The notes beneath the pieces were generated by a model, which was not told where the DNA came from, did not search any database, and saw only the letters and a program-made list of their open reading frames with translations. Both the position numbers and the translations under genes were made by a program. From Candidatus Hodarchaeaceae archaeon (lineage in GTDB: Archaea; Hadarchaeota; Hadarchaeia; Hadarchaeales; Hadarchaeaceae), in contig JASEGJ010000027.1 in NCBI GenBank assembly GCA_030018135.1, positions 1 to 13,675 of the forward strand: DNA of 13,675 bases. Reading direction: 5' to 3'. Position 1 is the first letter of the stretch, and each line of letters begins with the position of its first letter. Positions 1 through 867 of this stretch are shown here, one piece after another.

Positions 1-286
1 CCCCGCCGCGACGGGGCTTGACCGGGATTCGAACCCAGTATCGAGCGAGTTTCGTGCCCCGGCGTTCAATTCTGATGAGGTCCTTTCTGATGGAGAGCGG
101 GTGTTCCCGCTCGGGCCTGACGCACCTGTAGAATCGCTCTGCCTGCCGGCGGTTAGCGGAGTGGAGTTCAACATTGGGGTCGCCCCGCAGGAGCCGCTGG
201 AGCCCCTCATACTCGTGGTCGAGGATTTGGCGCTTAACGTTGGTCAGCCCCACGACCTTCGCCCTGACGACCTTCTGCACCTGCAT
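1..286 (-). CDS. tnpB: TnpB-like RNA-guided endonuclease, IS200/IS605 family, N-terminal 95 codons (runs off the window edge)
   Basis: Not in the ORF track. Open frame from ATG 286 (in-frame alternative ATG 310) to the window edge: MQVQKVVRAKVVGLTNVKRQILDHEYEGLQRLLRGDPNVELHSANRRQAERFYRCVRPEREHPLSIRKDLIRIERRGTKLARYWVRIPVKPRRGG. I recognise this as resembling the N-terminus of compact archaeal TnpB proteins (EY..Q..L.G, L(Y/H)SA..QA, PL..R.D, TKL..YW.(R/K)IP...RGG). An IS605-type end hairpin lies just upstream. The RuvC domain is not visible. Confidence 0.75.
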   Translation of the reverse strand, partial: MQVQKVVRAKVVGLTNVKRQILDHEYEGLQRLLRGDPNVELHSANRRQAERFYRCVRPEREHPLSIRKDLIRIERRGTKLARYWVRIPVKPRRGG

Positions 287-363
287 CGCGGCCACCCATC
301 CCCCGTCCATCACCCCCGCTTAAGCGATTTTCGTGGGGAGAGAGGTCACCGAAAGTGTTCGGG

Positions 364-410
364 CCGCCGCTCCCATCCCCGCTTTGAAGAGCGGGGTTTT
401 CCCGCGGCGG
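364..410 (-). repeat. IS left-end subterminal hairpin (core stem 377-396) with outer pairing arms CCGCCGC/GCGGCGG
   Basis: Perfect 7-bp stem ccccgct (377-383) / agcgggg (390-396) with a 6-nt loop. Segment 364-370 is complementary to 404-410. Confidence 0.8.
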
Positions 411-414
411 GGTC

Positions 415-421
415 TATAAAA
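415..421 (+). promoter_or_regulatory. TATA box (TATAAAA) upstream of the 445 operon, spanning the predicted IS junction
   Basis: TATAAAA lies 24-30 nt upstream of ATG 445, the usual archaeal spacing for a short or leaderless transcript. Confidence 0.5.
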
Positions 422-444: not shown

Positions 445-867
445 ATGGTAAAAAAAGTTTACCTGTCGGTGCCTTTGATCGCTAACCGGGACGTGCGAAC
501 TGCCAAGCGAATCGCTAGAATTATCGAAGCAGCTGGTCACAAAATAATTTCCCCTTGGGTCCTCGAGAGGAACCCAAATGGAAATCTGACGGCGGCGGAG
601 GTTTTCGAGCGCGACACGAATGGCGTTAGAGAGTGCGATGTCATCGTTGCGGAGGCGTCCACGCCCAGCCACGGCATCGGCATTGAAATGATGCTGGCGC
701 ACACCTTGGGGAAGAGGATAATCTGCATTTACAGGTCCGGCACCAAGCTTTCGCGGATGATTCAGGGCATGCCGAATGCGGTTCTGATCGAATATACGGG
801 CGTCTCGGATCTAAGGAAAAAGCTGTCGACCGAGCTTAAGGTACTTAAAGACCGACTCCAATCTTGA
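445..867 (+). CDS. Nucleoside 2-deoxyribosyltransferase / DNPH1 (Rcl)-like 2'-deoxynucleoside 5'-phosphate N-hydrolase
   Basis: 140 aa. N-terminal KVYLS strand, VFERD..GVRECDVIVAEASTPSHGIGIE motif with the catalytic Glu, and C-terminal LSRMIQG resembling the DNPH1 LSAMIxG motif. Confidence 0.85.
   Translation: MVKKVYLSVPLIANRDVRTAKRIARIIEAAGHKIISPWVLERNPNGNLTAAEVFERDTNGVRECDVIVAEASTPSHGIGIEMMLAHTLGKRIICIYRSGTKLSRMIQGMPNAVLIEYTGVSDLRKKLSTELKVLKDRLQS

Follow-up and report, generated by a model that had tools for sequence, protein, structure and literature searches.

In the insertion sequence (IS) IS608 of Helicobacter pylori, which carries a Y1 TnpA and a TnpB, the left cleavage site TTAC is outside the IS, 19 nt 5' of a subterminal hairpin's foot, whilst the left guide AAAG occupies positions +16 to +19, with A+16 pairing with T-3 and A+17 with T-4 (passages of PMC3201880 and PMC5934647). 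The TnpB of another IS200/IS605 element, ISDra2, is an RNA-guided nuclease, and in both ISDra2 and ISDge10 the transposon-associated motif (TAM) of the nuclease equals the transposon target, the ISDge10 protein of Deinococcus geothermalis (~390 aa) having a TTAT TAM (passages of PMC11589281). Both are bacterial proteins with a canonical catalytic triad, whereas passages of Altae-Tran et al. (2023, PNAS, PMC10691335) describe TnpB branches that have glycine in place of the RuvC-II glutamate and make up for its loss with a glutamate at another position, as RuvX does with one on beta-5, several of these RuvC-II-rearranged branches (RIIr groups) being nearly exclusive to archaea. Here we describe a relative of these systems at one end of a 13,675-nt stretch of archaeal DNA, hereafter the window, which is contig C19:1-13675 (JASEGJ010000027.1) of an assembly, G000, of 1.108 Mb in 45 contigs and 93% complete.

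Positions 1-415 of the window (minus strand) are very probably the left end and first 95 codons of a non-autonomous, tnpB-only IS200/IS605 insertion sequence, inserted directly 3' of TTAT between divergent host genes and with its right end at C22:1-55. Base 1 of the window is the contig start (C19:1), and the remainder of this tnpB copy is unassembled. In what follows C denotes contigs of G000, G003, G005 and G053 are related genomes, L denotes loci of relatives, P0005 is the closest full-length protein, and X1, X2 and X4 are sequencing runs. The features of this end are:

2..286, minus strand: 5' part of tnpB, 95 codons (first WED strand, two REC helices and WED strands to YWVRIPV), assigned by protein search and the P0005 model and cut by the contig start.
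293..296, minus strand: GGTG, 7 nt before the ATG and a likely ribosome-binding site, in a column conserved in 11 aligned upstream regions.
364..410, minus strand: subterminal left-end structure, an outer stem (410-404/370-364) around an inner hairpin that corresponds to IP_L (396-377) and whose foot is followed by AT (376-375), the structure being supported by its fold (z -2.84).
397..400, minus strand: AAAA, the left guide tetranucleotide (+16..+19), abutting the hairpin foot on its 5' side, read from the sequence; AAGA or AAAA in relatives.
415, minus strand: first base of the element, the left boundary lying between 416 and 415, from the second copy on C37, relatives' contigs and G003.
416..419, minus strand: TTAT, target/cleavage tetranucleotide outside the element and predicted TAM, from left-end comparisons and its single copy in uninterrupted alleles.

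The open frame runs on the minus strand from an ATG at 286 to base 2 (95 codons, or 104 when counted from a GTG at 313) and leaves the window, with YWVRIPV at residues 83-89 numbered from the ATG. Pfam and NCBIfam scans of the lone 104-residue fragment matched no family, and a PF01385 profile search over the G000 genome gave no match; the identification as TnpB comes instead from a search for longer proteins, which returned 48 relatives, nearly all 71-83% identical and most of 362-412 aa. PF07282 (Cas12f1-like TNB) is present in 44 of the 48, several of which carry the source names InsQ/TnpB or transposase of Hadarchaeota/Hadesarchaea, and the window fragment aligns to residues 1-95 of full-length proteins that have PF07282, with or without PF01385. 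The closest relative, P0005 (364 aa), is 83% identical to the fragment over residues 1-95. Its sequence matches the solved chains 9nzp (1.6e-16) and ISDra2 TnpB (8exa, 2e-8; residues 145-325 against 189-374), being ~44 residues shorter than the latter at the N-terminus, before RuvC-I, and its AlphaFold model (pLDDT 82.6, pTM 0.77) matches the folds of AsCas12f (4e-19), ISFba1 TnpB and ISDra2 TnpB. In the model the window-encoded part comprises a strand at 2-12, helices at 16-33 and 43-52 and WED strands including 83-87 (YWVRI), whilst RuvC begins at ~142. Judged by sequence, the frame is the N-terminal 95 residues of a predicted TnpB of ~364 aa; WED/REC and RuvC/zinc-finger (TNB) regions in one chain hold for the relatives of the window protein and are predicted for this copy. 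A sequence-only reading, made from the letters of the window, had proposed a TnpB-like gene with a much-reduced REC region encoding a very small nuclease. The longer relatives with PF07282 and the sequence and fold matches of P0005 bear out the gene, and the REC region of the P0005 AlphaFold model is indeed two helices (residues 16-52); the third claim went too far, ~364 aa being small but within the known range and not exceptional.

Read on the minus strand, the left end consists of TTTTAT (421-416), the first base A415, 15 nt (415-401), AAAA (400-397), an inner hairpin with a 7-bp stem and 6-nt loop (396-377) and AT (376-375). The open frame, the hairpin and this layout all lie where the sequence-only reading had put them, and around the inner hairpin is an outer 7-bp stem, 410-404 paired with 370-364, which that reading had missed. 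Folded as DNA, 425-345 gave -21.1 kcal/mol vs -13.9 +/- 2.5 in 200 shuffles (z = -2.84), with 0/200 shuffles as stable. Relatives have left hairpins in the same place with differing stems (CCACCG, CCCCGC, CCCCTTCC, CCCTC), and the left and right hairpins co-vary across lineages, being of the CCACC type in most relatives and of the CCCCGC type at both ends in G000. The element has subterminal imperfect hairpins at both ends (left 396-377; right C22:28-47, with the same CCCCGC stem), not terminal inverted repeats. Two relatives, L082 and L089, have an extra small gene (~40 codons, CxxC...CxxC) between the left hairpin and tnpB.

The position of the left boundary was assessed by comparison with other copies. 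C37 of G000 matches window 419-349 at 87%, the two being alike from TTAT inward and unrelated 5' of TTAT, and the C37 left end precedes a different TnpB N-terminus. G053, a genome of the same order as G000, gave ~20 matches, and in an all-against-all BLAST of the 11 loci fetched the homology of left ends starts at TTAT in 8/8, with unrelated flanks, and that of right ends stops at TTCAC in 4/4, the element measuring 1,257 bp. A strict anchor, defined as a perfect or near-perfect GC-rich hairpin with AA-R-R before and AT after it, could be set in 18 of 41 upstream regions taken from genome and metagenome contigs (17 relatives and the window); TTAT was present in 17 of these and TTAC in one, ending 19 nt 5' of the hairpin foot in nine cases and 18 nt in nine. 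A profile of the left-end core built without the TAM and the first four element bases matched 21/44 regions, one of them cut by a contig end, and TTAT or TTAC stood in the expected place in 18 of the 20 evaluable left ends, having been displaced in the other two, L034 and L095, by a spacer deletion and insertion respectively. A T at -5 is frequent. The earlier prediction of TTAT or TTTAT stands for TTAT as the flanking target, the T at -5 not being required. The predicted boundary at 415/416 is upheld by C37, the G053 copies, the relatives, guide covariation and the empty site. On this sequence evidence the TTAT at the left end is the target, outside the element, and hence the predicted TAM of the nuclease. 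In a first MAFFT alignment of the upstream regions homology appeared to end near 357, an artefact of misaligned hairpins that was corrected by reading the sequences and anchoring on the hairpin. A search for empty sites of two G053 copies, using their left flanks in 7 genomes of that genus, gave only short or 66-70% coding matches, none of them usable.

The guides vary together with the targets. AAGA or AAAA accompanies TTAT, whilst the sole TTAC copy (L033) has the guide AAAG, a natural compensatory pair which, beside AAAA/TTAT here, matches the proposal that a G-to-A change in the guide is mirrored by C-to-T in the target. At the right end GAAG lies 5' of the hairpin with the cleavage site TCAC, and the crossed IS608 rule fits both ends (TTAT/AAAA left and TCAC/GAAG right, compared with TCAA/GAAT at the IS608 right end), the guide 5' of each hairpin foot being complementary to its cleavage site by that rule. 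The element shares with IS608 the subterminal hairpins at both ends, an external left cleavage tetranucleotide 19 nt from the foot, a four-base guide at +16..+19, the AT after the foot, a right cleavage site inside the element a few bases 3' of the hairpin, and insertion 3' of the target without duplication. It differs from IS608 in its target (TTAT rather than TTAC), in its right site (TCAC rather than TCAA, ending 8 nt after the foot), in the extra outer stem round the left hairpin, in having no tnpA in this copy, in its archaeal host and in a family TnpB of ~364 aa with a rearranged RuvC-II.

The right end recurs in 31/31 close relatives and at four places in G000 (C22 start, C26 start, C40 end and C39), where GAAG, the hairpin and TAGTTCAC are followed by unrelated DNA, the stop codon lying 5 nt from the end. 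On C22, bases 1-51 encode the family C-terminus and stop, a right-end hairpin, which the sequence-only reading had named as something to look for, lies at 28-47, and the end finishes at base 55 in TAGTTCAC; these first 55 bases are almost certainly the right end of the window element. Roughly 750 bases between C19:1 and C22 are absent from the assembly. A 20-31-mer search of the first 80 bases of C19 against the other contigs found no overlapping contig, and tblastn with P0005 did not find the middle part of the tnpB gene in the G000 assembly.

Uninterrupted alleles were found in hot-springs metagenomes. No sequencing run containing the window was found; six runs share 5-7% of window words and four were compared at 85% likeness; contigs of X1, X2 and X4, from three studies and 90-95% alike, cover 418-1500 and then pass into unlike sequence. 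Their loose ends resemble one another and, in reverse complement, C22:56 onward (by eye, 30 letters), with TTAT directly before TTTTGG or TTTGG in X1 and X4 and TTGT in X2. None of the four runs compared has a contig over window 1-300, which has no bearing on the presence or absence of the element there. No TTAT follows the right end on C22, and TTAT is kept once in the uninterrupted alleles of X1 and X4. The host gene beside the left end is deoxyribosyltransferase-like, and the first gene on C22 encodes a xylose-isomerase-like TIM barrel; in G003, one of two family genomes with the former gene, it adjoins an orthologue of the latter, divergent and 93 nt apart, whilst the 4 kb fetched from the other, G005, did not contain the TIM-barrel gene. 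Together the uninterrupted contigs of relatives and the G003 adjacency indicate that the element inserted between TTAT and TTTGG, that TTAT belongs to the flank and that no duplication was made. Insertion 3' of an external tetranucleotide without target duplication is likewise seen in G053 (8/8), in the relatives (18/20) and in the X1 and X4 alleles, judged partly by eye. Two features of the left flank bear on this junction:

415..421, plus strand: TATAAAA, likely TATA box of the gene at 445, overlapping the target site and 24 nt upstream of the ATG at 445.
445..867, plus strand: flanking host gene of the nucleoside 2-deoxyribosyltransferase family (PF05014, E 8e-10; G003 neighbourhood), divergent from tnpB.

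The TATAAAA assignment is based on archaeal promoter geometry. The first base of the element completes this motif, and the insertion sits in the neighbour's probable TATA box, slightly rewriting it.

The window copy ends before the residues of the active site, which were examined in an alignment of 35 sequences 40-84% identical to P0005. Invariant in all 35 are D147, G230, E276, C283, C286, C302, C305 and D312, the four cysteines forming a zinc finger. In the alignment with AsCas12f (8j3r), G230 falls opposite the glutamate of the EDL motif, which we take to be the catalytic RuvC-II residue, whilst the invariant E276 sits in NEAYTS, on the next strand; the residues were assigned by sequence alignment, not by structural superposition. 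The sequence-only reading had expected a RuvC D-E-D triad, and in these 35 relatives the triad is not canonical. As in the RIIr groups described in passages of PMC10691335, there is a glycine at the canonical glutamate and a conserved alternative glutamate on the next strand. By sequence the family is a TnpB variant with a relocated RuvC-II glutamate, an already published rearrangement, in which catalysis would be carried out by D147, E276 and D312. It is archaeal, in contrast to the canonical ISDge10 and ISDra2 proteins, and its TTAT TAM, a prediction here, is already known from ISDge10 and not new.

With 110 nt between the left end and tnpB there is no room for tnpA, and the absence of that gene from this end, as claimed earlier, is borne out. 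Elsewhere in G000 Y1 sequence is limited to a C-terminal tnpA remnant of 54 codons on C10 (PF01797, 1.4e-13), directly behind a similar left end. Among the relatives, L100, an 84%-identical copy, has an intact Y1 transposase gene (PF01797, 1.2e-43), divergent and placed between tnpB and a left end of this kind, and L076 has a frameshifted one.

Three other explanations were weighed. The plus-strand TATAAAA stands at a normal archaeal promoter distance from the ATG at 445, as would be expected if TTTTATA and the GC hairpin were host signals only, namely the neighbour's TATA box with a terminator or operator, and no transposon end were present. Against this, hairpins with the 19-nt spacer are found ahead of tnpB genes at unrelated genomic sites, the relatives' contigs lose similarity exactly at this place, and the other flank is joined to a right end that matches and has the same stem sequence, leaving the explanation scarcely credible; the two readings of TATAAAA are in any case compatible, TATA boxes being frequent landing sites for an element that seeks TTAT in a GC-rich genome. 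A different challenge comes from the active site, the invariance of G230 where AsCas12f has its EDL glutamate, and with it the missing canonical RuvC-II residue, being what a nuclease-dead, RNA-guided DNA-binding regulator of the TldR type would show. Yet D147, D312 and the alternative E276 are kept in all 35 sequences, down to 40% identity, a pattern that passages of PMC10691335 read as a rearranged, still active site, and the gene resides in multi-copy elements with intact transposon ends whilst published dead derivatives are said to be immobile. We regard a TldR-like role for the family as improbable.

The third explanation is about the condition of this copy rather than what it is, and can be true alongside the identification of a tnpB-only IS200/IS605 element: the element would be real and the copy a dead relic, either because tnpB is disrupted past the contig start or because it is stranded without a working Y1 transposase. 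The C10 remnant as the only tnpA in G000, the degenerate left ends and internally deleted tnpB on C10, C21 and C23, a 5'-truncated tnpB piece at the start of C14 and the absence of the gene middle from the assembly all point that way. On the other hand, no stop interrupts the 95 assembled codons, which share 83% identity with intact relatives, and on C22 neither the last 16 codons nor the right end is damaged; the insertion is young, since contigs of 90-95% relatives lack it. Assembly breaks at three right ends (C22, C26 and C40) suggest several near-identical copies, and in a genome 93% complete a tnpA could be unassembled. We consider a relic the less likely state of this copy, though a realistic one.

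Several observations weigh against the reading of the locus as a TTAT-targeting element of this kind. At the left end, 23 of the 41 upstream regions were unanchored under the strict rule (through degenerate stems, insertions, a tnpA or small zinc-ribbon gene separating the left end from tnpB, or upstream sequence that was too short), the left ends of L098 and L101 deviate, and many relatives are one locus sampled repeatedly (L091/L092; L102/L118/L138), such that the counts overstate independence. At the junction, the aligner puts the break in the relatives' contigs at 418 rather than 416; for 415/416 to hold, their T run must be longer by 1-2 bases, a judgement made by eye on loose ends of 30 letters, and X2, one of the three empty-site contigs, has TTGT where TTAT is expected. 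With the canonical RuvC-II glutamate absent, nuclease activity would depend on the structural inference published in the passages of PMC10691335. Just 95 of ~364 codons are assembled and the copy may be broken or internally deleted, as the C23 derivative is, whilst no intact tnpA was found in the 93%-complete G000. As to a guide RNA, an Rfam search of the window, C22:1-2500 and three related elements gave no match, and a fold of the last 200 nt of the element in 27 relatives has 45 predicted pairs with compensatory changes in 7 only.

By analogy with IS608, a Y1 transposase acting in trans would bind the subterminal hairpins of the single-stranded top strand, the guides AAAA (left) and GAAG (right) pairing with the cleavage sites TTAT and TCAC, and the element would leave as a circle and, without duplicating its target, enter 3' of a further TTAT. 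The RNA loaded into TnpB would come from the 3' end of tnpB together with the right flank, the guide of this copy being C22:56 onward, and TnpB may cut TTAT-flanked DNA matching the right flank, that is, the vacated donor site. Cleavage of the empty donor site by TnpB leads to repair that restores the element, and the same outcome would be expected here. Across the 27 relatives the final 200 nt of the element hardly vary, even where the C-terminus of the protein is variable, and this near-invariant, folding 3' sequence hints at a guide RNA scaffold.

Between the left hairpin and tnpB lies a further block that recurs in the genome:

318..358, minus strand: conserved promoter/leader block, core ACTTTCGGTGACCTCTCTCCCC at 356-335, recurring in G000 and resembling a DNA-damage-response element.
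C42:8398, C22:40848, C22:54317, C23:5559, C45:3086, C11:72182, C7:695, C2:25804, C8:2503, C41:53002 and others: other block sites in G000 with <=4 mismatches.

The block, of ~37 nt, consists of the core ACTTTCGGTGACCTCTCTCCCC followed by AAAA-N-CGCTTAA and contains ACTTTC, an ANTTTC motif. With <=4 mismatches it has 15 sites in G000 vs 0 in 5 shuffles, most of them directly after a TATA box and upstream of unrelated genes, including tnpB and LAGLIDADG-like, NurA-like and topoisomerase VI B-like genes (named by eye, from first residues); a regular expression for it matches 26/43 relatives' upstream regions, and the G053 elements have a variant. Transcription probably starts from this block inside the left end. 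The damage-response element of Sulfolobus and other Sulfolobales is a 20-bp consensus that contains ANTTTC and is bound by Orc1-2 (passages of PMC6061795). The block shares this motif, agrees with the consensus at 16/20 positions by eye, the Sulfolobales being of a different phylum from the host, and in G000 lies near TATA boxes of replication/repair-type genes. It is a tentative and rather unlikely possibility that the block is a damage-response promoter module, shared with replication/repair-type and other selfish nuclease genes, through which the TnpB family would be switched on by DNA damage. If so, RNA-guided cut-and-copy retention would be timed to induced break repair, with host damage signalling co-opted by an IS200/IS605 element.

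Other mobile DNA in G000 includes a second, different TnpB, on C37:116-535 and C39:1-496, whose C-terminal part is only 37% identical to the window family. Its left end is 87% alike over 71 nt, with the same TTAT, and its right end and hairpin are the same as in the window family; with near-same ends on both, two TnpB lineages appear to share one transposon end set and presumably one transposase. C39 was considered as the continuation of the window tnpB and ruled out, being only 37% identical to P0005, and probably goes with the C37 N-terminus. C10:13211-13500 (minus strand) is a degenerate IS605-type remnant with a left-end-like hairpin, the promoter block, the 54-codon Y1 C-terminal piece and a few tnpB-like codons. 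C23:5415-5600 (minus strand) and C21:500-580 (plus strand) are left-end remnants with hairpin and block, the former fused to a short zinc-ribbon tnpB piece (PF07282, 26 bits) as an internally deleted derivative. C14:3-53 (minus strand) is a 17-codon tnpB fragment (residues 250-266, 82% identical to P0005) that adjoins an unrelated gene and runs off the contig start. The 1,021-bp contig C31 is a repeat that overlaps, through its 55-base ends, the ends of at least 12 further contigs and encodes a 221-residue frame, by its look a candidate DDE-type transposase; it is a second, more abundant insertion sequence in G000. Three contigs begin or end within the family right end (C22:1-55, C26:1-89 and C40:63981-64035), C22 and C40 sharing the 55 bases, and contigs that start or end inside right ends indicate that copies of the element caused several assembly breaks.

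The element is an ordinary member of a very abundant family, and its active-site variant and TTAT TAM have both already been published. What the locus illustrates is that the target and TAM of an uncharacterised TnpB, together with both transposon ends, can be read from left-end geometry alone, a reading that a second copy, the empty sites and a compensatory change seen in nature confirm here. It points to a family of archaeal TnpBs that are ~364 aa long and probably thermophilic, whose TAM is predicted to be TTAT and whose catalytic glutamate has been relocated, and as the rearranged active site is without a biochemical test in the passages of PMC10691335, one of its members would lend itself well to such a test. 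Within the biology of its genome the element is an ordinary insertion sequence, and it accounts for several of the contig breaks in the assembly.

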